A stretch of DNA of 64,000 bases from an uncultured Candidatus Saccharibacteria bacterium (GTDB lineage: Bacteria; Patescibacteriota; Saccharimonadia; Saccharimonadales; Saccharimonadaceae). The notes under the pieces are model-generated. The model was not told the origin of the DNA, ran no database searches, and was given only the letters and a program-made list of their open reading frames with translations. Below are positions 25,533-64,000 of the stretch, piece after piece; the first letter of the stretch is position 1; each line of letters opens with the position of its first letter. Made by a program: the position numbers and the translations under genes. The stretch covers positions 8,312-72,311 of the forward strand of contig CAMNAK010000003.1 of assembly GCA_946530965.1 (NCBI GenBank), read 5' to 3'.

Positions 25533-26375
25533 TCAATCGACTGAAAGTCTCATCGCAAGAGCAGTGGGTGCGCAAGCACTTTCCCAATCTTCGGCTGTCA
25601 GCTTACTCCAGCTGCGGTCTACGCCATCACCGGTGTATTGCCACATAATTGTTTTCCAACCATGCTTAGATACATCATAGCTAATAACGTGATTGCCGCC
25701 GTCGTCTGTGGTATAGTCTGCAACCCAAAGCGGGAAGTTCTTAGCCACAGAGTAATCGTCGCCGCTCCAGTCGTAGTGAGGGTCTGCTGCCACTGAGGAA
25801 GACATATAGATAACGGGCTTAACGCCTGTCATGGAATACACTTCCCAGAGCCAGCTTGCGGCCCAGTCGGTCTGGTCAACGGTTCCAGGCTGTTCCCAAT
25901 CAAGAACAATCATAATCTTACCGAGGTAAGGCTTGATTGTCTGGACGAAGTTTACAGCATCGTCGTGAGCTGAATTTGTGTCGGGTCTTGCCCAATGGTA
26001 AGCGCCAACGTATTTTCCGTTCTCGATAGCTGCCTCGATGTTGCGAACAAACTGGGGATCTTCGTAGCCGACACCTTCCGATGCCTTGCAGATGACGAAG
26101 TCATCGCTGGTTTCGAGATCCTCGATGTTGTTCCACTTGGAAACGTCGATTCCGCAGAGATACTGCGGAGCGGGGTCTTCGGAAATCGGACTTTCGAGCT
26201 TTGTCTCTACAGTACTCTCATAGACGATTTCCGATGCGGTGTCGGTGGGTTCCGTTGCGCTGTGGGCAATCATGGCTTTGATTCCGAAGAATATTCCGCC
26301 CAGAATTGCTACTGTAACTGCGATGCGGTCCCAACGAACCTTTCTGTGTGTTCTGTTCTTTCTGATCTCTTTCAT
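25533..26375 (-). CDS. Membrane-anchored GH25-family lysozyme (muramidase)
   Basis: The CGIDVSKWN...KASEG pattern matches GH25, and an N-terminal TM anchor is present. Start moved to MKEIRKN, which has AAGGAGG 8 nt upstream. Confidence 0.75.
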   Translation of the reverse strand: MKEIRKNRTHRKVRWDRIAVTVAILGGIFFGIKAMIAHSATEPTDTASEIVYESTVETKLESPISEDPAPQYLCGIDVSKWNNIEDLETSDDFVICKASEGVGYEDPQFVRNIEAAIENGKYVGAYHWARPDTNSAHDDAVNFVQTIKPYLGKIMIVLDWEQPGTVDQTDWAASWLWEVYSMTGVKPVIYMSSSVAADPHYDWSGDDYSVAKNFPLWVADYTTDDGGNHVISYDVSKHGWKTIMWQYTGDGVDRSWSKLTAEDWESACAPTALAMRLSVD

Positions 26376-26540
26376 TTTTGTTGCCTCCTTAAGCAAACAT
26401 ATTTTTATTTTCCCGAGGAGACAAATGTCTCACTTCGGTTGTAGCCAGCTACGGTGGGCGTTGTAACTAGCTAGAACCGAAGTAAGACTCCGAATGAACA
26501 TATAAAGGTGCCGTTATTAGACTAGGCTAACAACATATAT

Positions 26541-26569
26541 ATTATAGCATAAGCGCGTAAAATAGTCAA
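26541..26569 (-). promoter_or_regulatory. Sigma70-type promoter about 160 nt upstream of the lysozyme start
   Basis: The minus strand reads TTGACT-17 nt-TATAAT with a TGc extension. Confidence 0.65.
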
Positions 26570-32454: not shown

Positions 32455-35310
32455 TTATCTCTTGATAGCTCTATTTACTAGGAAGAATGATGCTGCGATG
32501 AAGCTAACGCTTCCGAGACCAATCATCCAGATATTATGGCTTGCTGTGTCTGGGTTATCTGGAACTTTCTTCTTGTAAATGAAGATTACTGTTTCGTTCT
32601 TAGTCATATTATCCGTAGAAGTTTCGGAACTTGTGCTATGAACGCCAACATATTCGTAACCCTTGCTAGAGAAGTCTTTCTCGGTTTCGCTATAGCTACC
32701 GCCATCTGGAATCCATACGCGATCCTTGCTTTCGAATTCGGTGTAGGTATCGTTCTCGCCTTCCTCGGCATAGATTACGTCGAGAGAGTGCATCTTGTAG
32801 ATAAACTGAATACGGATATTGCGGTCGCTGAATGTACCAGAAGCTGCATCGTAGGCTTGGTCTAGGACGATTTCGCCAGGATAGTTTAGAGCGGTACCGT
32901 GGAAGCTTACGCTTCTTGTTCCGGCTTCGTCCCAGGTATCGCCAGCTAGTTTGCCAGTTTCGCTCTTTGTTGGAGCTGCTTCGCTGCCGTCTTCCCAAAC
33001 ATAGGTGACGGTCAAATTGTAGTGCTTAACCTTGTCATAAAGGAAGATTACGGTTGCGTTTGCCTTCATGTTAGTCTTGGTGTTTGGGTCGCTCGTGCTA
33101 TGCATACCATAGTATTCGTAATCCTGCGCAGTAAGGTCGATTGGGAATTCGGCATAGTTGCCGCCATCAGGAATATACTGCGTATCTTTGTGTGAGATTT
33201 CGGTGTAGGTATCGTTCTCGCCTCTTTCAGCATAGATTACGTCGAGAGAGTGCATCTTGTAGATGAACTGAATGCGAATGTTGCTATCGTCGAATGTGCC
33301 AGAGGCTGCGTCGTAAGCTGGGTCTAGGACGATTTCGCCAGGATAGTTTAGAGCGGCGCCGTGGAAGTTTACGCTTCTTGTGCCTGTCTCATCCCAGGTG
33401 TCATTTTTATGGAAGCCTTCTTGATATTTTTGTGTTGCGGCTTCGCTGCCATCTTCCCAAACATAAGTAACCGTGAGGGTGTAGGACTTCTTTCTGTAGA
33501 TGAAGATTACAGTTGCGCTGTTCTTCATGTTGGTTGCCGAGACTGGTGAGCTCGTGCTGTGAACACTGACATATTCGTAACCGCCGCTAGTTAGATCGGC
33601 TGGCTCTTCGGCATAGTTGCCACCATCAGGGATATACTGCGTATCTTTGTGTGAGATTTCGGTGTAGGTATCGTTCTCGCCTTCCTCGGCATAGATTACA
33701 TCGAGTGGATGCATCTTGTAGATGTATTGTATGTGGATATCATGATCGCTAAATGTACCAGAAGCTACGTCGTAAGCTGGGTCTAGGACGATTTCGCCAG
33801 GATAGTTTAGAGCGGTACCGTGGAAGCTTACACTTCTTACTCCAGTTTCTTCCCAGGTATCTCCGGCTAGTTTGCCAGTTTCGCTCTTTGTTGGAGCAGC
33901 TTCACTGCCGTCTTCCCAAACATAATTAACCGTGAGGGTATATTCTGGGTCAGGCTCTGGCGTTAATGGCGTTGTGTCGTTTAGGGAAAGAAAGTATGAA
34001 TCGCCTTTTAGATTAATGTTGTTAGCGATAATTATACCCTGTAGGCCGTCTACGGCTACTTCTACGTCAGCGCCAGGAGCAATGATTGTTGAGCTCGAGT
34101 GGTTTTGAGTGATGATTTTTCCGGTATATACACCGTCGGGCTTGCTAGAATCGAATAGGTTAAGGATGATGTGGTTTGGATACTGGTAGTCTGTCACCTT
34201 ATAGCGCAAGCAGCTGATCTGATCTTCAGTATGTTTTAGCTGAGCTTCGTGAGATACATGCCAATCGTCCATTAGATCATCGCCAGAATCAGGGTCAAAA
34301 TGATTATTGGCTGAATCGAAATAATCTGGATTAGTCTTTCCTTCGTCGTAGCAAATCCTAAAACCGCTTCTTAGCTCAAATTCTTGTTGGTAATCCTTTA
34401 AATCTACGTTTACTACTAGGGAAGAAGGCTTGTTTTGATCGAAGCCTACAACTTCGATTTCTGTAGTCGGGTCTAGCAAATCGTAAGCATTAACAGTTAC
34501 GTAGTTAGCGCCTTCGTCATCGGTAATGCGAAGGTACTTAAGGTTCATTTCTTGATCGGTGCGTGCGATTGTGCCATCAACCGTATCAGTATCAGGTGTA
34601 TTTCTAATTAGCTGGTTTTGTTCAATTGCGTCAGCTTTTACAGCAGCTAAATCCAAGAATTCAGGTCCATTAGCAACTTCTTTCCAGAGGTTGTCGTAGT
34701 AATTAACAGAGTTTTCGCCCTCTTTGCGCTTTGGACCATTTATGTCTGCCCCATTGAAGATCCAAAGCTCGCCAAAACCATCCGTAGCATTCTGCGAAGG
34801 TTTACCGCTTGCGTCAACGTCGCTACCTACAATAAGGACACTTGAATTTGCATGGTCGTCGCCAGTATAGTAGCCGCGAAGACTAACTTCATCGTCTGCG
34901 GATTTAATATAGTTTGCAGTTGGAACATCGAAGTGTGCAATATTATTGCCATTACCAGTAAGGTAGTTTACTGCAATATTGCCATAAGCCTGCTGTGTCT
35001 GGTTGAAGCTATTGAAAGAAATAACATGAAAATTGCCGAGTGCGCCAGTAGAACCGAAGTTGCCGCCATAAATATGGGCAACTTGAGCATTAGCGAATGT
35101 TCTGTCGCTCGTGAGTTTGGAAGTACCATCGGTAGCGCTAACAGTTGGCGTGCCTACGTCGGTTCTCTGTGGAACCAAGTCTGTCACGGCAGCGTGGGCA
35201 TTATTTTTTATTATCGTGCTGGCAATCACGCCTATTCCTAGTACGAGCGTTATTGCGGATAGAGTGGACGCTATCCTACTTGCTCGAAAATTGCGCAAAT
35301 TTAGACGCAT
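32455..35310 (-). CDS. Large secreted, C-terminally membrane-anchored surface protein (putative adhesin) with three ~153-aa tandem repeats
   Basis: Signal/anchor segment at the N-terminus. The segment LGNFHVISFNSFNQTQQAYGNIAV resembles choice-of-anchor-A domains. Three repeats follow, starting Y(T/N)LTV(N/T)YVWEDGSEAA. A C-terminal TM helix is followed by RAIKR, and no LPXTG motif is present. Confidence 0.7.
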   Translation of the reverse strand: MRLNLRNFRASRIASTLSAITLVLGIGVIASTIIKNNAHAAVTDLVPQRTDVGTPTVSATDGTSKLTSDRTFANAQVAHIYGGNFGSTGALGNFHVISFNSFNQTQQAYGNIAVNYLTGNGNNIAHFDVPTANYIKSADDEVSLRGYYTGDDHANSSVLIVGSDVDASGKPSQNATDGFGELWIFNGADINGPKRKEGENSVNYYDNLWKEVANGPEFLDLAAVKADAIEQNQLIRNTPDTDTVDGTIARTDQEMNLKYLRITDDEGANYVTVNAYDLLDPTTEIEVVGFDQNKPSSLVVNVDLKDYQQEFELRSGFRICYDEGKTNPDYFDSANNHFDPDSGDDLMDDWHVSHEAQLKHTEDQISCLRYKVTDYQYPNHIILNLFDSSKPDGVYTGKIITQNHSSSTIIAPGADVEVAVDGLQGIIIANNINLKGDSYFLSLNDTTPLTPEPDPEYTLTVNYVWEDGSEAAPTKSETGKLAGDTWEETGVRSVSFHGTALNYPGEIVLDPAYDVASGTFSDHDIHIQYIYKMHPLDVIYAEEGENDTYTEISHKDTQYIPDGGNYAEEPADLTSGGYEYVSVHSTSSPVSATNMKNSATVIFIYRKKSYTLTVTYVWEDGSEAATQKYQEGFHKNDTWDETGTRSVNFHGAALNYPGEIVLDPAYDAASGTFDDSNIRIQFIYKMHSLDVIYAERGENDTYTEISHKDTQYIPDGGNYAEFPIDLTAQDYEYYGMHSTSDPNTKTNMKANATVIFLYDKVKHYNLTVTYVWEDGSEAAPTKSETGKLAGDTWDEAGTRSVSFHGTALNYPGEIVLDQAYDAASGTFSDRNIRIQFIYKMHSLDVIYAEEGENDTYTEFESKDRVWIPDGGSYSETEKDFSSKGYEYVGVHSTSSETSTDNMTKNETVIFIYKKKVPDNPDTASHNIWMIGLGSVSFIAASFFLVNRAIKR
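32563..33942 (-). repeat. Three in-frame tandem DNA repeats of about 460 bp inside the surface-protein gene
   Basis: Repeat boundaries fall at 33942/33483/33021, each at the Tyr codon of YxLTV. Long stretches are identical at the DNA level between units, e.g. ggatagtttagagcggtaccgtggaagcttac. Confidence 0.85.
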
Positions 35311-42060: not shown

Positions 42061-43083
42061 GTGTTATTATTGCCAATACGCAAAACACATTCAGACGAAG
42101 AAATTTTTGCGAGCCTTCGCAGAGTAGTAAAAATCCTTGGCAGACGCCCGCTACGGCGAGAATATGAAAAGCATCGCTATGACTCCGAACCGACCGCGGA
42201 TACTATCACTAGACGTTTTGGTAGTTGGAAGGAGGCTCTAGCGGCTGCAGGAATCGACCCGAAGGATCCGGGGCAAAACCCAAATTTTCTCACGGACGGG
42301 GAGATATTGGGGCATCTGCGAGAAATTGCTCGTGTCGTAGGGCATACACCAAGCGTTCCAGAATATAATGCTTTGCGTCGCCCGCATATGGCTTGCTCGA
42401 CTACGGTTTCTGAGCGCTTTGGTGGCAGGTGGGAATATGCTATAGAAGCCGCAGGGCTACCTGAGCGTAATTCGAACAAGATTGAACGCGAGCGAATCAT
42501 AAAAGCTCTGCAAGAAATCGCGAGAAAACTTGGCCATCCTCCAACCAGAAGCGAGTACAAAGCGAATAGGGCAAAAGACATGCCTAGCGAAAAAACAATA
42601 TCGCGTAACTTCGACCCTTGGGCAGATGCTCTGAAGGCTGCCAGTCTCGAACCCTGCAAGTGTAGCCATACGGGGTGCAGGTATTCGGACGAAGAAGTGG
42701 CTAAGAGTTTGCGCGTCATGGCAGAAAAACTCGGTCATACTCCATCGCTCAAGGAATATGTCAAGTATCATGAGCCTGGTATGCCGAACGATAAAACGCT
42801 GCGCATAAGGTATGGTTCTTGGCCGCTGGCTCTAAAAGCGGCAGGCTTTGAAGATTACGATGCGAAGTCCAAGGACCACCGAGTAGTGTTCGAAGAAAAG
42901 TATTCTGACGAAGAAATTCGGGAAGCTCTGGTGGCCGTGGCCGATAAGGTCGGACATGCACCCTCGCGAAATGAGTACAGGCGACTTCGCCCTGGCGACT
43001 CGCCCAGTCCGAGTACGGTCCTCTACAGGTATAAAACCTGGATGGAGGCACTGAAGCAGAATGGGTTGCTAGAAGGCGAGTAA
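42061..43083 (+). CDS. Protein made only of five homing-endonuclease-associated (HNH_repeat-type) repeats
   Basis: Five ~65-aa units follow the pattern sDEEi..aLr.va.klGh.Ps..EY......mps..ti..rfGsW..AlkaAG. The true start is probably the TTG at 42070 (GAGAGGTG 6 nt upstream). No nuclease domain lies in the ORF. Confidence 0.6.
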   Translation: MLLLPIRKTHSDEEIFASLRRVVKILGRRPLRREYEKHRYDSEPTADTITRRFGSWKEALAAAGIDPKDPGQNPNFLTDGEILGHLREIARVVGHTPSVPEYNALRRPHMACSTTVSERFGGRWEYAIEAAGLPERNSNKIERERIIKALQEIARKLGHPPTRSEYKANRAKDMPSEKTISRNFDPWADALKAASLEPCKCSHTGCRYSDEEVAKSLRVMAEKLGHTPSLKEYVKYHEPGMPNDKTLRIRYGSWPLALKAAGFEDYDAKSKDHRVVFEEKYSDEEIREALVAVADKVGHAPSRNEYRRLRPGDSPSPSTVLYRYKTWMEALKQNGLLEGE

Positions 43084-58341: not shown

Positions 58342-58357
58342 TCTTCTCGCGAGGCAT

Positions 58358-58639
58358 TAAAATACCCCCGTCATGAAGGCGGGGGTTTGGGTGAGGTGCG
58401 CGCGCTGGGCCTCGGAGGTACGAGTTGTGGTTCTGTCAGAGGCTTATTGGAAATATTCCAAATTTTTTCGATCGTGCCTGCAAAACAGGAACACACAACT
58501 TAAATTTTGCGGTGTGAGAGCGGCACACCACGCATATATAATTACTACTTCGGAGGTCTTGGCCCCGATTGCGCGCTTACCACGGTATGAACTATCTCCA
58601 AAACAGGAGCGGATCATAAAGTCCAATGCCATGGCAATT
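58358..58639 (-). ncRNA. Candidate structured RNA or regulatory leader (~280 nt) bounded by its own promoter and terminator-like hairpin
   Basis: A promoter (TTGACA-17-TATTAT) sits at 58646-58674. A terminator-like hairpin (CCCCCG-N9-CGGGGG plus a U-rich tail) sits at 58365-58385. Long-range complementary arms (GCGCGC..GGGGCC / GGCCC..GCGCGC) enclose several local hairpins. No convincing ORF is present. Confidence 0.35.
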
Positions 58640-58705: not shown

Positions 58706-60028
58706 CTAAAAATCGCTATATTCTTCGATATAATACGGCTCGCCCGTGATTTTACTATAAAAATCAAGCACTTCGGGTGAGCTTTTGAGTGCTCTAGGAT
58801 AAGCCGCGCGCATGAGGCTAAGCCCCTCGATGCTCTCGCAGCGGGATAATGCAACGTATAACTGGCCGATATCAAAGCAGGCTGGATCGACGACGGTGCG
58901 AGAATAAGTCTGGCCTTGGCTTTTGTGAATCGTGATGGCGTAGGCAAGGCGCAAAGGCAGCTGCCTAAAAGTGCCCACGATCTCGTGTTTGATGACCTCG
59001 CCATCCCATTCTGGGCGCATAATGTTCCAGTCGTAAGCCTCGACAATAGATTTACGGCCATTATCCCAGGTGACTTTTACGGCATCTTCGCCAATCTCGC
59101 GAACGGTGCCAAGCTGGCCATTCTTGTATTCAAGGTTATTGCAGAGCGCAATCACACGTGCGCCAGGTTTCAGAATCAGGCTATCCTCGGCGGCCTTATC
59201 GCTCGCAGTAATTGAACCCTTAACGACGGCATGAAAAATCTTCGGCTCGCCAACAAGAGCATTAAGCTTCTTGCTGTTAATGGCGCTAGCCTTGGCATTG
59301 GTTGGAACGAGGCAAATCGCGCCGTCATCGAACTCTTCGCTTACTCTCTGGTTAAAATACGGCAAGCAACTACCGTCACCACGACGTGCCTTCTCGAGCA
59401 TCTCGACATATTCGTCTTCTTCTTGGCGCACAATCTCGGTTAAAACGAATGGCTTAAAATGAAAGCGCTCCCAGTTCTTGCCAGAAAAACAAAAGCCAGC
59501 CTGAATCTCTGGGTATTTGTAACTTAGCACCTCGCGTTCTTCGCGGCGCAAAACTGGCGGCAGCTGGAAGAAATCCCCAACCACAATTACTTGCTTCTTG
59601 TGCTGGGTTTGTTTCTCGGCCTCAAAAATAATCTCGGAAATATAATCAAAAAGATCAACGCGACACATCGAAATCTCGTCAATAATAATGACGTCGGCGT
59701 TCAGGATCTCTTCGTTTGGATGTTTGTGCTTGTGAGAATCGTAAGCTTGTAGGAAAGGCAGGCGAAAAGCGCGGTGAATCGTACAGCCGTTTTGGAGCCG
59801 GAGCGCGGCAATCCCGGTCGGCGCGCAAGCAATAATATGCTTCTTGTGGCGCATCTTCTTCAAAAATTCGCTTAGTACATAAGATTTACCAGTTCCCGCA
59901 TCGCCCGTCAGAAAAACGTTTTCACCCATCAGCATTGCGTCGAGGGCTTGTTCCTGTCCTTCGGTAAGGCCATTGTCGCTAAGGTTGGAAATCAGATTTT
60001 TGAGATGGAGACTCGGAAAACTGGACAT
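58706..60028 (-). CDS. SF1B helicase of the Pif1/RecD family
   Basis: Walker A GDAGTGKS, then IIIDEISM, GDFFQLPPV, AITIHKSQG and YVALSR motifs. Confidence 0.85.
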   Translation of the reverse strand: MSSFPSLHLKNLISNLSDNGLTEGQEQALDAMLMGENVFLTGDAGTGKSYVLSEFLKKMRHKKHIIACAPTGIAALRLQNGCTIHRAFRLPFLQAYDSHKHKHPNEEILNADVIIIDEISMCRVDLFDYISEIIFEAEKQTQHKKQVIVVGDFFQLPPVLRREEREVLSYKYPEIQAGFCFSGKNWERFHFKPFVLTEIVRQEEDEYVEMLEKARRGDGSCLPYFNQRVSEEFDDGAICLVPTNAKASAINSKKLNALVGEPKIFHAVVKGSITASDKAAEDSLILKPGARVIALCNNLEYKNGQLGTVREIGEDAVKVTWDNGRKSIVEAYDWNIMRPEWDGEVIKHEIVGTFRQLPLRLAYAITIHKSQGQTYSRTVVDPACFDIGQLYVALSRCESIEGLSLMRAAYPRALKSSPEVLDFYSKITGEPYYIEEYSDF

Positions 60029-60034
60029 ATATTC

Positions 60035-60040
60035 ATTATA
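60035..60040 (-). promoter_or_regulatory. -10 hexamer (TATAAT) 6 nt upstream of the helicase ATG (leaderless-type arrangement)
   Basis: The minus strand reads TATAAT-gaatat-ATG. There is no SD and only a weak -35. Confidence 0.4.
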
Positions 60041-60051
60041 AACGTTTTGGG

Positions 60052-60085
60052 CAAAAAGAAACCCCCGGTCGAAGATGACCGAGGG
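60052..60085 (-). terminator. Intrinsic terminator
   Basis: CCCTCGGTC-N6-GACCGGGGG followed by TTTCTTTTT on the minus strand. Confidence 0.75.
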
Positions 60086-60094
60086 TATTGTAGT

Positions 60095-61117
60095 TTAGGA
60101 GGTTGCGATTGCGGCGACAGCGGCTGCGAACATCGGAAACAGAGGCTTGCGCTTGTTGGCCTTGAAATCCTCGCTATAAGCACAGAGCTCGCTGGCGGGA
60201 ATATCGTAATGCTTGCAGCTCACGGGCTTGTATTTTCTGAGGTCTGTAATCACCATGTCGGCAAGATTAATCAGACCTTCGTATCTAGCACGATTTTCCA
60301 TTCCGTGAAGTTCCTTGGAGATGATTCTGCAACGGTCGATAACGAAGCTTGTAGTTGGAGTGGACATGATTCTTACGTTGACGTCGATAGCGGAAGAGAG
60401 GGCGTTTTCGCTGAGTGCCTGAAGGAATTCCAGGACGCCTCTTGCGTATTCGTCGTGGCTCCACTCTTCGCAAGGAAGGGCAATGATGTTGTCCATGATC
60501 TCGTTATAGTAAGCCATGTTTTCTGCGGACTTGGGCTCGAGCTGCTGCCAGTAAACGTAGATAATGCTTGCGGGCACATGACCTGCCAGGCGGCTAATCA
60601 GAAGCGCCTGGACCTGCAGATATCTGAGCTCAGTCTCGCTGTTAGTACTATTGAGACTATTCTTGATCTCGTGTGCAGCCTTAATCTCGGGGATAAATCT
60701 GCTAATGCGACGAGGGTCGTTTTCGTCCTCAGGGCATTCATCGAGAGAGGGGATAATCCACTTGAGTTCCTCGTTGAGTACCTTATTTTCATCAGTCAGA
60801 AGAGAGGGTTCGATGCCGGAAAGAAGTCTATATGCAACTTCGCCTCTCTGTCTGAGATACTCAGACTCCTGGTTGAGGCGGTAGTCGAGGAGACTATTCT
60901 TATAGTCAGGATTGAGCTTCTCACTGATAGTCTTGCGAGTATCGATGAGCATGTCCATGTATGTGGGGTTATTCTCGTCACAGAGGCGAAGAGCAACCAT
61001 TTCGAGTCTGTCGTGAAGGGCATGGTACGCACTTGCTACGCCTACAGGTAAGGCGCTAACAAGGTTGTGCAGCACCTCAATTACACGGATTTCTTCCTTG
61101 TTGATGATGTTGTCCAT
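60095..61117 (-). CDS. Hypothetical protein (340 aa)
   Basis: RBS AAGGAGG 8 nt upstream, a long clean ORF and its own terminator. No family recognised. Confidence 0.55.
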   Translation of the reverse strand: MDNIINKEEIRVIEVLHNLVSALPVGVASAYHALHDRLEMVALRLCDENNPTYMDMLIDTRKTISEKLNPDYKNSLLDYRLNQESEYLRQRGEVAYRLLSGIEPSLLTDENKVLNEELKWIIPSLDECPEDENDPRRISRFIPEIKAAHEIKNSLNSTNSETELRYLQVQALLISRLAGHVPASIIYVYWQQLEPKSAENMAYYNEIMDNIIALPCEEWSHDEYARGVLEFLQALSENALSSAIDVNVRIMSTPTTSFVIDRCRIISKELHGMENRARYEGLINLADMVITDLRKYKPVSCKHYDIPASELCAYSEDFKANKRKPLFPMFAAAVAAIATS

Positions 61118-61150
61118 ACTTCAGGACCTCCTTTTGATAATGTAATGAAC

Positions 61151-61174
61151 GCAAAACACCGAGCGGACTCGGTG
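61151..61174 (-). terminator. Terminator-like hairpin inside the leader of the 340-aa gene (possible attenuator)
   Basis: CACCGAG-tccg-CTCGGTG followed by TTTTG, between a TATACT -10 (61188-61193) and the RBS. Confidence 0.4.
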
Positions 61175-61244
61175 AACTGGTGCGTATAGTATAACCTAAA
61201 AGTAAAGAAAACACAAGAGCAATGTTGGCTTATGGGGTAGGCAA

Positions 61245-61273
61245 GAAAAATCCCCGACTTTTTTGGGTCGGGG
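61245..61273 (-). terminator. Intrinsic terminator (cassette type)
   Basis: CCCCGAC-loop-GTCGGGG followed by ATTTTTCTTGCC. Confidence 0.8.
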
Positions 61274-61299
61274 TAGAGGATTGTAAACGCGTGACGATC

Positions 61300-61755
61300 T
61301 CATGCTACATCGCAAGCCGCTGATGCTGCAGCCATTTCCGACTCGAGAACATTCATTAGCCGGATGATTGTGGCTTTGGAAGGCAAGGAGATGCAAGGAT
61401 ACTCTGTGAGTCCTGCGAATTTTGCACGGAGCAGCTCTTCGAGATTGAGCGTGTATCTCTTCTCGATTTTGTCGCAAGCTTCTGCGACACTCGCTGCTGC
61501 GTTGCTGATTACCTTGAGCTCGTTGGCTTGTGTGCTGCTAGCTCTGAGGTATTCTTCGCAAAGACCATGAGCAAAGCCGCTTACATTATACTTGAGCTCT
61601 TCCAGGGGATGCATGTCTGCCAAGCGGTGCGAAGTTGTCCAGCTGATATGGATCTCTTCTGGAAAACAAGCCTTAGACGATAGCGCCAAGAGTCGTGTCA
61701 GTGCGTCCATCAGTTTCTTTGTCTGCTTGTAGGTTTCGAGTTCGTAGCCGTACAT
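61300..61755 (-). CDS. Hypothetical protein (151 aa)
   Basis: Start moved to MYGYEL, which has GAGGTG 6 nt upstream. The C-terminal ...RLMNVLESE... weakly resembles the paralogue family upstream. Confidence 0.5.
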   Translation of the reverse strand: MYGYELETYKQTKKLMDALTRLLALSSKACFPEEIHISWTTSHRLADMHPLEELKYNVSGFAHGLCEEYLRASSTQANELKVISNAAASVAEACDKIEKRYTLNLEELLRAKFAGLTEYPCISLPSKATIIRLMNVLESEMAAASAACDVA

Positions 61756-61815
61756 TACAAACACCTCGTTTTTCTTGTACTCCACCTTATGCTATGCATA
61801 ATGGTAGGCTATTAT

Positions 61816-61844
61816 ATTATAGCATAAGCACCATAAAATGTCAA
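61816..61844 (-). promoter_or_regulatory. Sigma70-type promoter (cassette type)
   Basis: The minus strand reads TTGACA-17 nt-TATAAT with a TGc extension. Confidence 0.7.
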
Positions 61845-61870
61845 TATATAACAGGGGTGGGCACAGGCAA

Positions 61871-61900
61871 GAAAAATCCCCGACCATTTTGGGTCGGGGG
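61871..61900 (-). terminator. Intrinsic terminator (cassette type)
   Basis: CCCCGACC-loop-GGGTCGGGG followed by ATTTTTCTTGCC. Confidence 0.8.
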
Positions 61901-61911
61901 ATAAGGTGAAA

Positions 61912-62562
61912 TTATTCGCCTTCTTCTTCGTCTTCTTCGTCTTCTGTGCTTGCTTCGAGGAACTTCAGCATAGATTCGACACAGTTGAGACCTGCAGAAT
62001 TGGGGCAAGATTCAAGTTTCTGGATAAACTCTGCATACTTGAGAATCTTGCTGTGGCTATCGAAGAGGTTGAGCATGGCGTCGCCGATTGCAAACCTGAT
62101 TGCGCTCAGTATTATGTCGACACTGTCGCCGTCGCCGAGGCAGATTTCGTGGTTTGTGCCAAGCATTCCGTAAAGCATCCTGTCGAAATCGAAGGAAGAG
62201 TAATCCTTGATTTTACCGAAGGCTTTGTTTACTTCGATAGCGCTGTCCTTGATAGCTTCCAGTACATAGTCGGGGCAGCACTTTTCCTTGGATCTAGACT
62301 CGCATTCCTTATCGAGAATGCAGACAAGATCGCGGAAAGCGCGCTTGAGCTCGAAATTAGCGTCAAGCCATGTTCCGTTGACTTTCCAAGTCAGCTTGTC
62401 GAAGGGAATGCCAGCAAGATCGCTCGGGATAAAGCCCTGTTCGCCAAACATCTCTTCTTCCTCGGTAGGGTAGTTAGCCCTGGGGAGACGGGCGCAGTAG
62501 CTGTGGAGTGCTTCATAGAAATTCAGGAGCTGGCGGATAGCCGAAATTGTATTCTTTTTCAT
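61912..62562 (-). CDS. Acidic helical protein, paralogue family member 1
   Basis: RBS GAGGTG. It shares LLNFY.AL.SY...LPR.N.P, CLG.GD.VD and KILKYA..I.KLES.P.S.GLN with the next gene. The C-terminal tail is acidic. Confidence 0.6.
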   Translation of the reverse strand: MKKNTISAIRQLLNFYEALHSYCARLPRANYPTEEEEMFGEQGFIPSDLAGIPFDKLTWKVNGTWLDANFELKRAFRDLVCILDKECESRSKEKCCPDYVLEAIKDSAIEVNKAFGKIKDYSSFDFDRMLYGMLGTNHEICLGDGDSVDIILSAIRFAIGDAMLNLFDSHSKILKYAEFIQKLESCPNSAGLNCVESMLKFLEASTEDEEDEEEGE

Positions 62563-62624
62563 GGTATCACCTCATATAAGTACTCCATCTTATGCTTCTC
62601 AAGAGCATAATGATAGGCTCTTAT

Positions 62625-62653
62625 ATTATAGCATAAACGCAATAAAATGTCAA
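62625..62653 (-). promoter_or_regulatory. Sigma70-type promoter (cassette type)
   Basis: The minus strand reads TTGACA-17 nt-TATAAT. Confidence 0.7.
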
Positions 62654-62679
62654 TAAGTAACAGGGGTGGGTGCAGCCAA

Positions 62680-62708
62680 GAAAAATCCCCGACCTTTTTG
62701 GGTCGGGG
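62680..62708 (-). terminator. Intrinsic terminator (cassette type)
   Basis: CCCCGACC-loop-GGTCGGGG followed by ATTTTTCTTGGC. Confidence 0.8.
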
Positions 62709-62720
62709 CAAATAAGATGA

Positions 62721-63353
62721 TTATTCGTCTTTTTCCGTCCTTGCGTCTGCTTCGAGGGACTCCATCATGGATTCGATATAATTGAGGCCCAAGGAATCGG
62801 GATAAGATTCAAGTTTCTCGATACACTGAGCGTACTTAAGAATTTTGTCGGGTTCATCGAAGAGTTCGGTCAGAACGAAGCCAATAACGAACATGAATGC
62901 TTCAAGTATAGCATCGACGTCGTCTCCAAGACCTAAGCAGAGCTTCTTGCGGAAAGAGAGATGCTCGGAGAGTATGCTGCTTAAAGCGTAGCAGGAAAAA
63001 TCCTTGATTTCGCCATAAGTCTTAACAACATCGAGAGCTGCTCTTTTGACAGGCTCCAGTACGTAATCGTAGTGGCCGCTATTCATAATTCTAGACTTGC
63101 ATTCTTCTTCGAGAACGGAAGCGAGATTACCGAGAGCGCGCTCGAGCGTGTAGTAAACCTCTATAGCGCAACCAGTTTCCCAGACAAACTTGTCCAGAGG
63201 AATACCACAAAGATTGTCCGGAAAAGAATGCTCTTCGACGTCATTTACTAATCCTATGGAAGGGTGGTTAACCCTAGGGAGATAGGCGCTGTAGCTGCTG
63301 AGTGCTTTGTAGAAATTCAGAAGCTGGCTAAGCGCCGGGATGTTGCTTCGCAT
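62721..63353 (-). CDS. Acidic helical protein, paralogue family member 2
   Basis: RBS GAGGTGAT. Clear full-length similarity to 61912..62562. Confidence 0.6.
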   Translation of the reverse strand: MRSNIPALSQLLNFYKALSSYSAYLPRVNHPSIGLVNDVEEHSFPDNLCGIPLDKFVWETGCAIEVYYTLERALGNLASVLEEECKSRIMNSGHYDYVLEPVKRAALDVVKTYGEIKDFSCYALSSILSEHLSFRKKLCLGLGDDVDAILEAFMFVIGFVLTELFDEPDKILKYAQCIEKLESYPDSLGLNYIESMMESLEADARTEKDE

Positions 63354-63417
63354 ATACTAATCACCTCACGTAAGTACTCCATCTTATGCTTCTAAAAGCG
63401 TAAAGATAGGCAGTTAT

Positions 63418-63445
63418 ATTTTAACATAAATGGGGAGAAAGTCAA
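63418..63445 (-). promoter_or_regulatory. Sigma70-type promoter (degenerate cassette)
   Basis: The minus strand reads TTGACT-16 nt-TAAAAT. Confidence 0.55.
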
Positions 63446-63468
63446 TGAACGGCAGTAAGCGCGGGCAA

Positions 63469-63497
63469 GAAAAAGCCCCGACCGTGTTGGTCGAGGC
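63469..63497 (-). terminator. Intrinsic terminator (cassette type, one mismatch)
   Basis: GCCCCGACC-loop-GGTCGAGGC followed by TTTTTCTTGCC. Confidence 0.7.
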
Positions 63498-63517
63498 AGA
63501 TAGATTAAATGAAGTGA

Positions 63518-64000
63518 TTAAACTTGCGCGCCCAGAAATTCCGAATGAGCTCTCGCGAACTCGATGCCAGAAGAATCGGGGCAAGACTCCAGCACACTAA
63601 TAAGCTTTGCGTACTCGAGACTGTTTGCGGGATCATTGAATAGGTCAAGCAGGGCCTTTCCCATGGCGAGTTTTACCAGGTCGATAACCTTCTCGATGTC
63701 TTCTCTGCAGCCAAGGCAGATGTGATGTTCTCTGTTCAGGAACTCATTGTAGAGGGCATTTCCGATGATAGGATCGGGGTTTAAGCGTCTGCAAGTCTTA
63801 TAGGCCTTGCGGAACTTAGCTGCGGTGCTCTTCACGCCTCTAGTGGATGTTACTTTCTCTTTTCTGTAATCGCACATTGCGTCGTAGAGAGAAGCGATGC
63901 GTTTGAAGCCAGATTCGAGAGTCCAGAAGGAACCTTCGGGGTCATCGGGCCAGAACTGCTCGCAGAGTTCGCTGAGATAAATGCCTTTAAGGGTATTGGA
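63518..64000 (-). CDS. Paralogue family member 3, 5' end outside the window
   Basis: The frame stays open upstream of the listed Met to base 64000 (SNTLKGIYLSELCEQFWPDDPEGSFWTLESGFKR...). The C-terminal HHICLGCREDIEK...LEYAKLISVLESCPDSSGIEF matches the family. Confidence 0.55.
   Translation of the reverse strand, partial: SNTLKGIYLSELCEQFWPDDPEGSFWTLESGFKRIASLYDAMCDYRKEKVTSTRGVKSTAAKFRKAYKTCRRLNPDPIIGNALYNEFLNREHHICLGCREDIEKVIDLVKLAMGKALLDLFNDPANSLEYAKLISVLESCPDSSGIEFARAHSEFLGAQV

Follow-up and report, generated by a model that had tools for sequence, protein, structure and literature searches.

The arrays described so far that most resemble the locus reported here are those of orphan immunity genes. 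In Staphylococcus aureus and other firmicutes, esaG arrays are found downstream of the gene for the T7SS toxin EsaD, and these tandem immunity paralogues evolve by recombination (PMC9484751). The acquired interbacterial defence clusters of Bacteroidales (rAID-1) also include orphan immunity arrays, with repetitive intergenic sequences (10.1101/471110). Saccharibacteria are attacked by host Actinobacteria with Esx-secreted effectors, and the authors of that work expected counter-measures in the epibiont (PMC13622651). In Patescibacteria, genes of a type IV secretion system (T4SS) are widespread; they occur without a relaxase, and epibiotic growth depends on them (PMC12102498).

Here we describe a strain-variable tandem array with strong expression signals that encodes a fast-evolving protein family without known relatives. 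It is probably used in conflict with hosts or rivals, and this is its candidate role. The array lies at the end of the window, the whole stretch of 64,000 nucleotides that was analysed, in a block (58706-64000) that proved to be a composite of three parts side by side and not one accessory unit. Its anatomy is near certain: a backbone Pif1 helicase, a lineage-restricted orphan module of a protein termed Y and a family termed X, and the arrangement of X in tandem cassettes.

Organization of the locus

All open reading frames of the block are on the minus strand and were found where the preliminary description had placed them. The orphan module, with Y (340 aa) and X proteins of 209, 210 and 216 aa, sits between a tRNA-Trp gene and the helicase gene. 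The array had been thought to continue past the window edge, but extension of the contig revealed exactly three X paralogues: the array stops 147 bp beyond the edge and tRNA-Trp follows. On the other side of tRNA-Trp is a restriction-modification hot spot with a different cargo in each strain. The rest of the window is housekeeping, and its GC content is about that of the block. Neither an integrase nor a repeat of the tRNA 3' end was found at the locus, and searches of viral contigs (2.9 million), phage records (50,697) and plasmid records (72,556) gave no relative. The proposed search for a cognate toxin gave no such gene nearby, and effector and secretion genes were likewise absent within about 10 kb of the array. 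In one related locus (L018) the neighbours include a CPBP-family protein and a weakly papain-fold-toxin-like protein.

The Pif1 helicase

The helicase gene (58706..60028, minus strand) encodes a Pif1-family SF1B protein of 440 aa. It matched Pfam PIF1 with 100.7 bits (1.2e-28; curated cut-off 25.9 bits), phrog_325 'Dda-like helicase' at 2.4e-76, and the bacterial Pif1 structures 5FTB/5FHD over its full length (about 1e-58). Judged by these matches it is a genuine compact stand-alone bacterial Pif1, like the solved enzymes. It also partly matched helicase domains of PADLOC systems, e.g. PDC-S68 and RecD-like, with matches that span the generic SF1 ATPase core only and never whole proteins.

Between strains the helicase had a dN/dS of 0.01-0.02 versus 0.02-0.07 for the neighbouring ABC transporter, the strongest purifying selection in the region. 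Its synteny with tRNA-Trp and the ABC transporter genes is kept in species at 62-82% identity, also in those without any orphan genes. At 62% identity (L021) X and Y are both missing and 52 nt separate tRNA-Trp from the helicase gene downstream, and at 68% (L023) the gene order is tRNA-Trp, Y, helicase. Because of the low dN/dS and the synteny in species lacking X and Y, the helicase, which had been assigned to an accessory or defence module, instead belongs to the conserved chromosomal backbone of this Saccharibacteria family, outside the variable module. In the ancestral state it was the first gene downstream of tRNA-Trp, and the orphan module was inserted between the two, with X upstream of Y.

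The preliminary description had given every gene its own promoter and terminator. This was borne out for Y, the 151-aa gene and the paralogue units but not for the helicase, for which the scan found no -35/-10 pair and no strong terminator of its own. Its start region reads TATAAT-GAATAT-ATG (60026..60040, minus strand), with the -10 box 6 nt upstream of the start codon, and has no Shine-Dalgarno sequence. The arrangement of TATAAT, 6-8 nt and ATG is conserved in six loci at five species levels. Together, the short spacing and the missing Shine-Dalgarno sequence suggest a putative leaderless transcript.

Family X and the 151-aa gene

The three X paralogues, all on the minus strand, are X216 (61912..62562; 216 aa, pI 4.6), X210 (62721..63353; 210 aa, pI 4.6) and X209 (63518..64000), which crosses the window edge and is the first gene after tRNA-Trp. 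The start codon of X209 would be at window position 64147, and the same contig in ENA (L001) gave a full length of 209 aa. The exact X210 protein was found on 4 public contigs. The shared motifs noted earlier are real, and the proteins are homologous (45% and 28-30% identity). The acidic C-termini ascribed to all three occur in the X216 type, which ends in EDEEDEEEGE, and in the X210 type, whereas X209 (pI 5.2) ends in LGAQV without an acidic tail. Glutamate-rich tails are also present in the distant members P0100 and P0101. The net charges of the three proteins, each of about 210 residues, are -17, -16 and -6, which corresponds to about -0.03 to -0.08 per residue.

The AF2 model of X216 was confident (pLDDT 80.6, pTM 0.78) and all-helical, with no fold match in PDB or BFVD. 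The observation that the paralogues carry no assignable motif was confirmed with Pfam, PHROG, NCBIfam and PADLOC profiles, none of which matched X; PADLOC, used as the recommended defence-system finder, matched neither X nor Y. Sequence inspection showed no signal peptide or membrane segment in X. The family forms 7 clusters among 5.8 billion proteins, and 5 when 1.84 billion representatives were searched exhaustively with a profile. Among sequences clustered at 90% identity, 20% of X216 sites and 3.6% of helicase sites are polymorphic; in X216 these positions lie at residues 3-9, 31-45 and 80-135 and spare the conserved motifs.

The 151-aa gene (61300..61755, minus strand; ATG start, 161 aa if an upstream GTG is used) had been called an orphan. 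Comparison of the X and 151-aa profiles by hhalign gave a probability of 55% and an E of 1.2e-4, collinear over 135 columns. The region upstream of the gene is 89% identical to that of X216, and its terminator (61252..61273, minus strand) belongs to the same sequence family as the X terminators. The gene is probably a C-terminally truncated, decaying and diverged X derivative in the same cassette framework. Its dN/dS was 1.25 for the single pair available; in strain L005 an in-frame stop at codon 39 makes it a pseudogene, and it is absent from the L003, L006 and L011 types.

Tandem cassettes and expression signals

The X units form a true tandem repeat with a period of about 800 nt, each with the order terminator, consensus extended -10 promoter, conserved 5' hairpin, strong ribosome-binding site and open reading frame. 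The minus-strand junction before the 151-aa gene (61756..61911) holds the X216 terminator (61899-61878), a consensus promoter (61844-61816), a leader hairpin (61809-61779) and the ribosome-binding site GAGGTG (61767-61762). The junction before X216 (62563..62720, minus strand) has the X210 terminator (62708-62687), a perfect TTGACA-17-TATAAT (62653-62625), a leader hairpin (62618-62582) and a ribosome-binding site (62573-62568), and the one before X210 (63354..63517, minus strand) has the X209 terminator (63497-63475), a promoter (63445-63418), a leader hairpin (63411-63376) and a ribosome-binding site (63367-63362). The perfect TTGACA-17-TATAAT with an extended -10 is found upstream of both X216 and the 151-aa gene, and the X210 promoter matches the consensus at 10/12 positions.

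Terminator-like hairpins with T-tracts numbered 12, versus 6.0 +/- 2.7 in shuffles, and lie after Y, the 151-aa gene and each X paralogue; the cassette terminator motif has three copies in 64 kb versus 0 expected. The junctions are 89% identical and the proteins only 45%. In L012 and L013 the layout of promoter, hairpin and ribosome-binding site is kept although X is only about 30% identical. The leader hairpin shows compensatory changes at its base (CUAUC/GAUGG, CUACC/GGUGG, CUACU/AGUGG) and at its apex (AUGCU/AGCAU, AUACC/GGUAU). Each cassette is a self-contained unit, and its signals predict strong expression.

The protein Y

Y (60095..61117, minus strand) is an all-helical orphan of 340 aa that lies immediately upstream of the helicase wherever the lineage has it. 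It had no match in Pfam, NCBIfam or PADLOC, a single weak match in PHROG (phrog_7366, unknown function, E 3.5e-4) and only 4 clusters among 5.8 billion proteins; its AF2 model was poor (pLDDT 53). In L018, L019 and L023 a Y-like gene lies upstream of the helicase; in L012 and L013 one lies downstream of X. Y has only 32% identity in a comparison in which the helicase has 82%, and its dN/dS is 0.09-0.23. The Y control region (61127..61219, minus strand) is almost invariant across strains and contains a non-consensus promoter TTGTGT-17-TATACT (about 61216-61187), a leader hairpin with a U-tract that is a possible attenuator (61174-61157), and the ribosome-binding site AAAGGAGG (61134-61127). An intrinsic terminator (60061..60086, minus strand) with a 10-bp stem, 7 GC pairs and a T-tract follows the gene.

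Distribution and evolutionary rate

All named sources of X and Y were Saccharibacteria or Nanosyncoccaceae from sheep and cattle, and the module is limited to a few ruminant-gut Saccharibacteria (Nanosyncoccaceae). The comparison of strains was built on metagenome assemblies, where tandem repeats can collapse, and gave one to three X copies per strain with or without the 151-aa gene. The architectures were 209-210-216-151, 209-210-151, 209 with the 151-aa pseudogene, the 209 type alone and 216 alone, and distinct ones recur on independent contigs. At least one X and at least one Y are kept in every strain, while some related species lack X and others both. Unequal homologous recombination between the conserved junctions would be expected to give such copy-number patterns. 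The dN/dS of X was 0.23-0.52 and that of the flanks 0.01-0.07; the genes next to them evolve 5-25 times more slowly than X and Y.

The paralogues are thus not a single-copy core family, they show no homology to a housekeeping protein, and the synteny of the region is not invariant. As for the immunity or defence island of the preliminary description, its genes are indeed lineage-restricted, fast-evolving, strain-variable and placed beside a restriction-modification hot spot, but nothing places the paralogues in an immunity, anti-defence or defence family.

Possible functions

We tentatively propose that X proteins neutralise other proteins in the manner of immunity or counter-defence factors, with Y as partner, a reading that is possible but well short of probable. 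The X proteins would be abundant, cytoplasmic, acidic, all-helical binding proteins, with a predicted conserved scaffold and hypervariable segments. They would act against proteins that the host bacterium or rivals deliver, with duplication and divergence broadening the set of targets, and Y, as the constant partner of X, would act in the same process. We infer this from the architecture and evolutionary rate, and favour it because of the restricted distribution, strain variation, fast rate, expression framework and conflict setting. The Esx-secreted effectors of host Actinobacteria make it biologically plausible, and the esaG and rAID-1 arrays are precedents for such an architecture. Against it count that neither X nor Y resembles a known immunity family in sequence or fold and that toxin, effector and secretion genes are absent within about 10 kb. 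Immunity genes are usually co-transcribed with a toxin gene or placed downstream of one. The terminators that insulate each array gene also count against an immunity role.

The dN/dS values of X and Y are below 1, and their rates could reflect relaxed constraint in a symbiont of small population size, with no arms race. They might then be lineage-specific proteins with an ordinary internal role (structural, regulatory or chaperone-like) that drift fast under weak selection in a reduced genome, the copy-number variation being neutral tandem duplication and loss. The decay of the 151-aa unit (dN/dS 1.25, pseudogene in L005), the retention of at least one X and one Y in each strain and the lack of a conflict-system partner near the array agree with such a role. 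We nevertheless consider it rather unlikely: the flanking genes of the same genomes are strongly constrained (0.01-0.07), so weak selection is not genome-wide, and the control regions stayed tightly conserved while the proteins diverged to 30% identity. Moreover, the role cannot be essential, given that X, or X together with Y, is missing from related species, and the locus is in a hot spot for conflict genes. It is unlikely, too, that X and perhaps Y are effectors sent into the host bacterium, e.g. by the Patescibacterial T4SS, with fast evolution and copy-number variation due to differing host targets. Lineage-restricted, fast-evolving paralogues of variable copy number with strong predicted expression would suit that role, as would the lack of a signal peptide or membrane segment, which is expected for T4SS substrates. 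The glutamate-rich C-terminal tails of the 216 and 210 types, P0100 and P0101 recall the C-terminal signals of some T4SS substrates. The secretion system itself is widespread and essential for epibiotic growth (PMC12102498), but the 209 type has no acidic tail, no T4SS genes occur among the scanned window ORFs or flanks, and the X model gives no hint of a catalytic domain.

An anti-phage or anti-plasmid system in which Y, with or without X, acts as sensor and the helicase as motor appears very improbable. Y, where present, is always directly upstream of the helicase, PADLOC helicase domains (PDC-S68, RecD-like) were partly matched and the restriction-modification hot spot adjoins. However, in L021 the helicase occupies this position with Y missing, each gene is closed off from its neighbour by a terminator, and PADLOC matched neither X nor Y and, in the helicase, just the generic SF1 core. 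Like the bacterial Pif1 enzymes of solved structure, the helicase is compact and stands alone, and no gene of the region is under stronger purifying selection. Least probable of all is that X is a DNA-mimic anti-restriction or anti-defence protein (ArdA or Ocr type) or that the block is a mobile-element remnant at tRNA-Trp. The acidity of X (pI 4.6-5.2), the strong individual promoters and the position immediately downstream of a tRNA gene, next to restriction-modification systems, prompt the idea, but the net charge of X (-17, -16 and -6 over about 210 residues) is modest; classical DNA mimics have a net charge per residue well above it. This reading is further disfavoured by the missing integrase and tRNA 3' end repeat, the lack of relatives among the viral contigs, phage and plasmid records searched, and a GC content as elsewhere in the window.

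Comparison with known systems

The helicase matches Bacteroides Pif1 (5FHD, 5FTB) and other bacterial 'PIF1 helicase' entries (the 6S3E series) over its full length (residues 19-427 of 440, about 1e-57 to 1e-59), and all are of one size class (430-450 aa). Nothing notable sets it apart from bacterial Pif1; it is an ordinary family member, core to the lineage rather than accessory.

Like the expanded effector paralogue families known from host-associated bacteria with type IV secretion, X is lineage-restricted and fast-evolving, lacks a signal peptide and has acidic C-termini in some members, and this phylum shares with users of such effectors a T4SS, here essential for epibiotic growth (PMC12102498). 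It differs in having no adjacent secretion gene and no universal acidic tail, and export of X is only putative. With integron cassettes the array shares unrelated or diverged reading frames split by a repeated conserved junction and a strain-dependent content. It has, however, no integrase or attC-like recombination site, and nearly all of its units are paralogues. Most integron cassettes lack a promoter, whereas the junctions of the array include both promoters and terminators.

The esaG and rAID-1 arrays remain the closest in architecture. The X array differs from them by the absence of a toxin gene and of a recombinase nearby, by a terminator and promoter for each unit instead of an operon, and by proteins without homology to EsaG (DUF600), SUKH, Imm or any other immunity family. 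Unlike the esaG and rAID-1 hosts, its organism lives as an obligate epibiont, and its genome is about 1 Mb in size. Common to all three are strings of non-identical paralogues that encode small cytoplasmic proteins, a strain-dependent copy number and rapid evolution. With rAID-1 the X array further shares repetitive intergenic sequences (10.1101/471110), and with esaG a conserved inter-unit sequence that can drive recombination (PMC9484751).

Gene content and strain variation of the block

From 58.7 kb to the window edge the block comprises six genes, all on the minus strand: a 440-aa helicase gene (58706-60028), the 340-aa orphan Y (60095-61117), a 151-aa gene (61300-61755) and three members of the paralogous family X, named by length, X216 (61912-62562), X210 (62721-63353) and X209, the last clipped by the window edge (63518->64000). 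According to the preliminary description the array continues beyond the window. The window's own contig in ENA (L001, 93 kb), recovered by exact-protein look-up, showed that it ends just past the edge: the third paralogue has 209 aa in full and is the final array member, and a tRNA-Trp gene sits upstream of it without further paralogues. Elsewhere the window carries housekeeping genes, among them those for SecA, DnaK, HtrA and several tRNA synthetases. It also encodes a 340-aa protein built from five Pfam HNH_repeat ('homing endonuclease associated repeat') units (E 1.2e-68; 42061-43083, plus strand) and a 951-aa protein that, with its MucBP and Muc_B2 domains, resembles a surface adhesin (32455-35310, minus strand).

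In pairwise comparison the X paralogues show identities of 45% and 28-30%; they have pI values of 4.6, 4.6 and 5.2, and none has a hydrophobic segment. They have in common an N-terminal QLLNFYxAL helix, a CLGxGDDVD block and a KILKYAxxIxKLESCPxSxG block. The genes, motifs, promoters and terminators described earlier were confirmed with small corrections, such as the restriction of the acidic tail to the 216 and 210 types.

Variation in copy number and presence among close strains, as the preliminary description had envisaged, was indeed observed, with five architectures among strains having 98-100% identical helicases. The order 209-210-216-151 occurs in the window, in L001 and in the related contig L002, and 209-210-151 in L010. 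In L005 the 209 gene is followed by a 151-aa gene whose codon 39 is an in-frame stop, L003 and L004 carry a 209-type gene alone, and 216 alone (L006-L009 and L011) is the commonest form among the contigs read. X genes had dN/dS ratios of 0.23-0.52 and Y of 0.09-0.23; the single pair of 151-aa genes gave 1.25. Within 90%-identity clusters 20% of the X216 sites were polymorphic versus 3.6% for the helicase, and the variable sites of X216 lay mostly outside the three conserved motifs. The 151-aa protein aligned with X in a profile-profile comparison (55% probability, E 1.2e-4), collinear with X residues 5-160; because of this match and the shared cassette framework we regard its gene as a probable truncated, decaying X copy. 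Between L001 and L006 the dS values were mosaic (helicase 0.25, ABC transporter gene 0.14, Y 0.12, X216 0.07), which suggests that the array was recently exchanged between strains by recombination.

Expression cassettes

The X genes are arranged as tandem units of about 800 nt each. Scanning revealed a G+C-rich hairpin followed by a T-tract after Y, the 151-aa gene and every X gene, a 12/12 match to TTGACA-17-TATAAT with an extended -10 element upstream of the 216-aa and 151-aa genes, and a 10/12 match upstream of the 210-aa gene. Junctions between units are 68-90% identical over 40 nt and 89% identical over 104 nt, the proteins 28-45%. The signals of the separate units are not independent inventions. 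The terminator motif occurs three times in the 64 kb, with none expected, and the leader motif is confined to the array.

Every X leader examined (14/14 units, two distant lineages included) forms a 5'-terminal hairpin of 10-13 bp. Compensatory changes were found both at the base of the stem (CUAUC/GAUGG, CUACC/GGUGG, CUACU/AGUGG) and at its apex (AUGCU/AGCAU, AUACC/GGUAU). The hairpin, which may stabilize the transcript, is followed by a GAGGTG ribosome-binding site. With a terminator, promoter, hairpin and GAGGTG in each unit, every unit is therefore an insulated cassette with signals predicting high expression, and the X genes are probably highly expressed. A short upstream ORF starting from the ATG of 'GATGGAGTAC' in the X leaders was dismissed: neither its length nor its reading frame is conserved, and the change from ATG to GTG is a compensatory one inside the hairpin.

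Y has its own, weaker promoter and a leader hairpin with a U-tract. This terminator-like hairpin (61157-61174, minus strand) lies between promoter and ribosome-binding site, is near-invariant among strains and may act as a transcription attenuator. An Rfam search gave no known RNA family in the region or the related loci. Elsewhere in the window, the same near-consensus extended -10 promoter type as in the X cassettes (26539-26569) drives a 287-aa gene (25533-26396, minus strand). Its product has an N-terminal membrane anchor, resembles a GH25-type muramidase by eye and could have a bearing on how host cell walls are attacked.

The Pif1 helicase and its downstream spacer

The helicase matched PF05970 (PIF1) with 100.7 bits versus a curated cut-off of 25.9 (E 1.2e-28), and the solved Pif1 structures 5FTB, 5FHD, 6S3E and 7OAR matched residues 19-427 of 440 (1e-57 to 1e-59). 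The full-length similarity covers both RecA-like domains and the 2B region, and the protein is a genuine compact bacterial Pif1-family SF1B enzyme. Between strains its dN/dS was 0.01-0.02, compared with 0.02-0.07 for the adjacent ABC transporter. Orthologues form a graded series from 98% down to 57% identity, and in every species examined the helicase gene lies upstream of two ABC transporter genes, a glycogen synthase gene and a GH57 enzyme gene. In the most distant species (L021, 62%) a tRNA-Trp gene is located 52 nt upstream of the helicase gene, with neither X nor Y present. Because of this low dN/dS, the graded orthologues, the kept synteny and the X/Y-free locus, the helicase is not accessory. 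The preliminary description had placed it in a candidate host-interaction, immunity or defence island; the orphan genes do behave as an accessory, conflict-type locus, and the helicase lies outside that locus. A GTDB genome scan with the helicase recovered three close relatives only, since the search patterns were specific to close relatives.

In all species examined (window 60026-60040, minus strand; L003, L006, L018, L019, L021) a TATAAT sequence precedes the helicase ATG by 6-8 nt and a Shine-Dalgarno sequence is absent, which suggests a leaderless mRNA. The 416-nt spacer between the helicase and ABC transporter genes holds an independent transcription unit (58356-58639, minus strand) with a TTGACA-17-TATTAT promoter (58674-58646) and a terminator-like hairpin (58380-58364). 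Its G+C-rich sequence of about 284 nt folds far better than shuffled versions (z = -3.7; 0/200 shuffles as good). Species with helicase identities as low as 62% also have a promoter and terminator-like unit at this position, with poorly conserved sequence. The unit matched no Rfam family and is a candidate novel non-coding RNA; gene callers sometimes place a spurious ORF of about 93 aa in this spacer.

Surroundings, distribution and origin

Beyond the window, on the far side of tRNA-Trp, a DUF3800 gene is followed by cargo of defence type, which varies from strain to strain. The window strain has a split type IIG restriction-modification enzyme and a 1074-aa RecQ/DpdF-like helicase, L003 has an EcoRI-type methylase together with GmrSD/HNH and Mrr proteins, and L006 has an Eco57I-type set. 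This swap hot spot for restriction-modification and defence genes covers L001 1-8830 (past the window end), L003 4658-9625, L006 1306-9611 and L023 118-5084. Two DUF3800 paralogues, about 50% identical, bracket the cargo in L003 and L006, and DUF3800 may mark or mediate its exchange. The nearby cognate toxin sought on the basis of the preliminary description did not turn up, as no toxin domain was detected in the window's large ORFs or in the surrounding 10 kb or so. In a sister species (L018 177-1451, minus strand; helicase 82% identical) two other genes occupy the position upstream of Y. One encodes a CPBP/Rce1-like membrane protease. The product of the other (185 aa) has a full-length but weak match to Pfam Gln_amidase 'Papain fold toxin 1', scoring 20.1 bits (E 1.4e-3) against a cut-off of 24.1 bits. 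This is a hint that genes of toxin and immunity type gather at this locus.

X proteins are exceedingly scarce: among 5.8 billion proteins a profile search found 7 clusters, and an exhaustive HMM search of 1.84 billion representatives returned 5, adding two members at about 30% identity. For Y 4 clusters were found. Exact or near-exact copies of the block proteins carry the name Candidatus Saccharibacteria in NCBI. In GTDB the representatives comprise a MAG assigned to Nanosyncoccaceae, one from sheep rectum and a third Saccharibacteria MAG, and one additional contig came from a bovine metagenome. A JGI metagenome scan with the Y profile gave a single, identical locus.

Species were ranked by helicase identity to the window. 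At 62% (L021) only tRNA-Trp and the helicase are present; at 68% (L023) type III restriction-modification genes, tRNA-Trp and a Y-like gene (396 aa) precede the helicase; at 73% (L019) a Y-like gene (327 aa) precedes it, and at 82% (L018) the CPBP-family and weakly papain-fold-toxin-like genes are followed by a Y-like gene (346 aa) and then the helicase. The window species (98-100%) has tRNA-Trp, one to three X genes, the 151-aa gene in some strains, Y and the helicase. An X-like gene followed by a Y-like gene occurs on two short contigs of other lineages. From this ladder and these contigs we conclude that Y inserted downstream of tRNA-Trp, and that X joined in some lineages and was amplified in the window species. 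Y identity is just 32% where helicase identity is 82%. An integrative element at the tRNA gene was rejected, as there is no integrase and no direct repeat of the tRNA 3' end (att); a search of 20.6 kb for the 24-nt 3' end of tRNA-Trp found a single copy, even with 3 mismatches allowed.

Homology and structure searches

Searches of Pfam, PHROGs, PADLOC and NCBIfam, with single sequences and every alignment member, returned no significant match to X, Y or the 151-aa protein; weak profile matches to WAP, WXG100_2, DUF6959 and EspC were unsupported and judged to be due to chance. Sequence profiles gave no significant match of X or Y to solved structures in the PDB, and homology between X and Y was rejected (hhalign probability <1%). 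Modeling of X216 with AlphaFold2 from an 8-sequence alignment gave a confident, all-helical structure (pLDDT 80.6, pTM 0.78). With Foldseek the best hit of the X model in PDB and BFVD had an E value of 2.9, with TM-scores on the query of at most 0.24. Since a confident predicted fold had no match in these collections, the X fold may be structurally new. The Y model was poor (pLDDT 53).

Possible function and comparison with known systems

The locus anatomy is secure, and X is a genuine family, not described before, whose genes are arranged in unusual cassettes within a narrow uncultivated lineage. Patescibacteria account for a large share of bacterial diversity and live as parasites of other bacteria. 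To our knowledge, almost nothing is known about epibiont-side genes that mediate conflict with host bacteria. Pressure on gene content is to be expected in a genome of about 1 Mb, and the retention of up to four insulated copies of an orphan family, all carrying signals for strong expression, therefore suggests a function that matters. Strain variation and fast evolution point to interaction with a changing partner. Several features fit binders of a changing conflict partner: insulated cassettes with high-expression signals, a conserved scaffold with hypervariable segments, a dN/dS raised relative to constrained neighbors, copies gained and lost among strains, dispensability in sister species and a position in a conflict-gene hot spot. 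Host Actinobacteria attack Saccharibacteria via Esx-secreted effectors, and counter-measures by the epibiont have been predicted (PMC13622651). These features, the array precedents and the Esx attack lead us to favor, tentatively and at clearly less than even odds, the reading that X proteins are neutralizing binders of the immunity or counter-defence type.

We weighed this reading against others. A lineage-specific internal role of X and Y under relaxed constraint is somewhat less likely. That the X proteins are translocated effectors we hold to be unlikely. No secretion gene, toxin, integrase or att repeat was found at the locus or its flanks. A defence system built around the helicase is improbable. 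PADLOC did match the helicase, to the ATPase core of much larger proteins (e.g. residues 26-159 with PDC-S68 690-824 of 1273); X and Y had no match and the 151-aa protein one chance-level match (Cas10_Id, E 0.029). The components did not all match the model of one system, so a known anti-phage defence system was rejected. Slightly less probable still is a DNA mimic or mobile-element remnant. ArdA/Ocr mimics combine very high negative charge density with a link to mobile elements; X carries a net charge of -6 to -17 per ~210 aa and matched no such Pfam or PHROG family. The block had no DNA match in phage and plasmid collections, and X and Y had no protein relatives in a viral-contig collection; a phage or plasmid origin was rejected on these grounds.

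A further reading, which we regard as speculative and rather unlikely in its entirety, is that the X/Y module represents the epibiont side of an arms race between Saccharibacteria and their Actinobacterial hosts: a new family with a new fold would either neutralize host Esx (type VII) effectors within the epibiont or itself be injected into the host, and would be diversified via a recombining array of self-contained expression cassettes. If true, this would for the first time make the predicted but not yet identified counter-defence (PMC13622651) accessible to genetics. The junction of terminator, consensus promoter, 5' hairpin and ribosome-binding site may also serve as a natural expression module for engineering bacteria that are hard to manipulate.

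A type II toxin-antitoxin pair with X as antitoxin and Y as toxin was rejected because Y is cut off from X (or from the 151-aa gene) by a terminator and has a promoter of its own; family matches in Pfam and NCBIfam were also absent. Like the immunity gene arrays of polymorphic-toxin systems, the X array consists of small, predicted cytoplasmic, tandem non-identical paralogues (three at 28-45% identity and a truncated fourth), and copy number and content vary between close strains. It differs in having no adjacent toxin gene and no homology to a known immunity family, as neither single X proteins nor all members together matched the Pfam and NCBIfam immunity families; no homology places the genes in a known immunity or defence family. 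For these reasons we state that the X/Y array may work like an immunity array, not that it is a member of that class. The rAID-1 clusters are headed by a XerD-family tyrosine recombinase, whereas the X array has no recombinase in the 10 kb to either side. In architecture the X array comes closest to orphan immunity arrays, namely the esaG arrays (PMC9484751) and the rAID-1 clusters, in which repetitive intergenic sequences separate the genes as they do the X ORFs (10.1101/471110).
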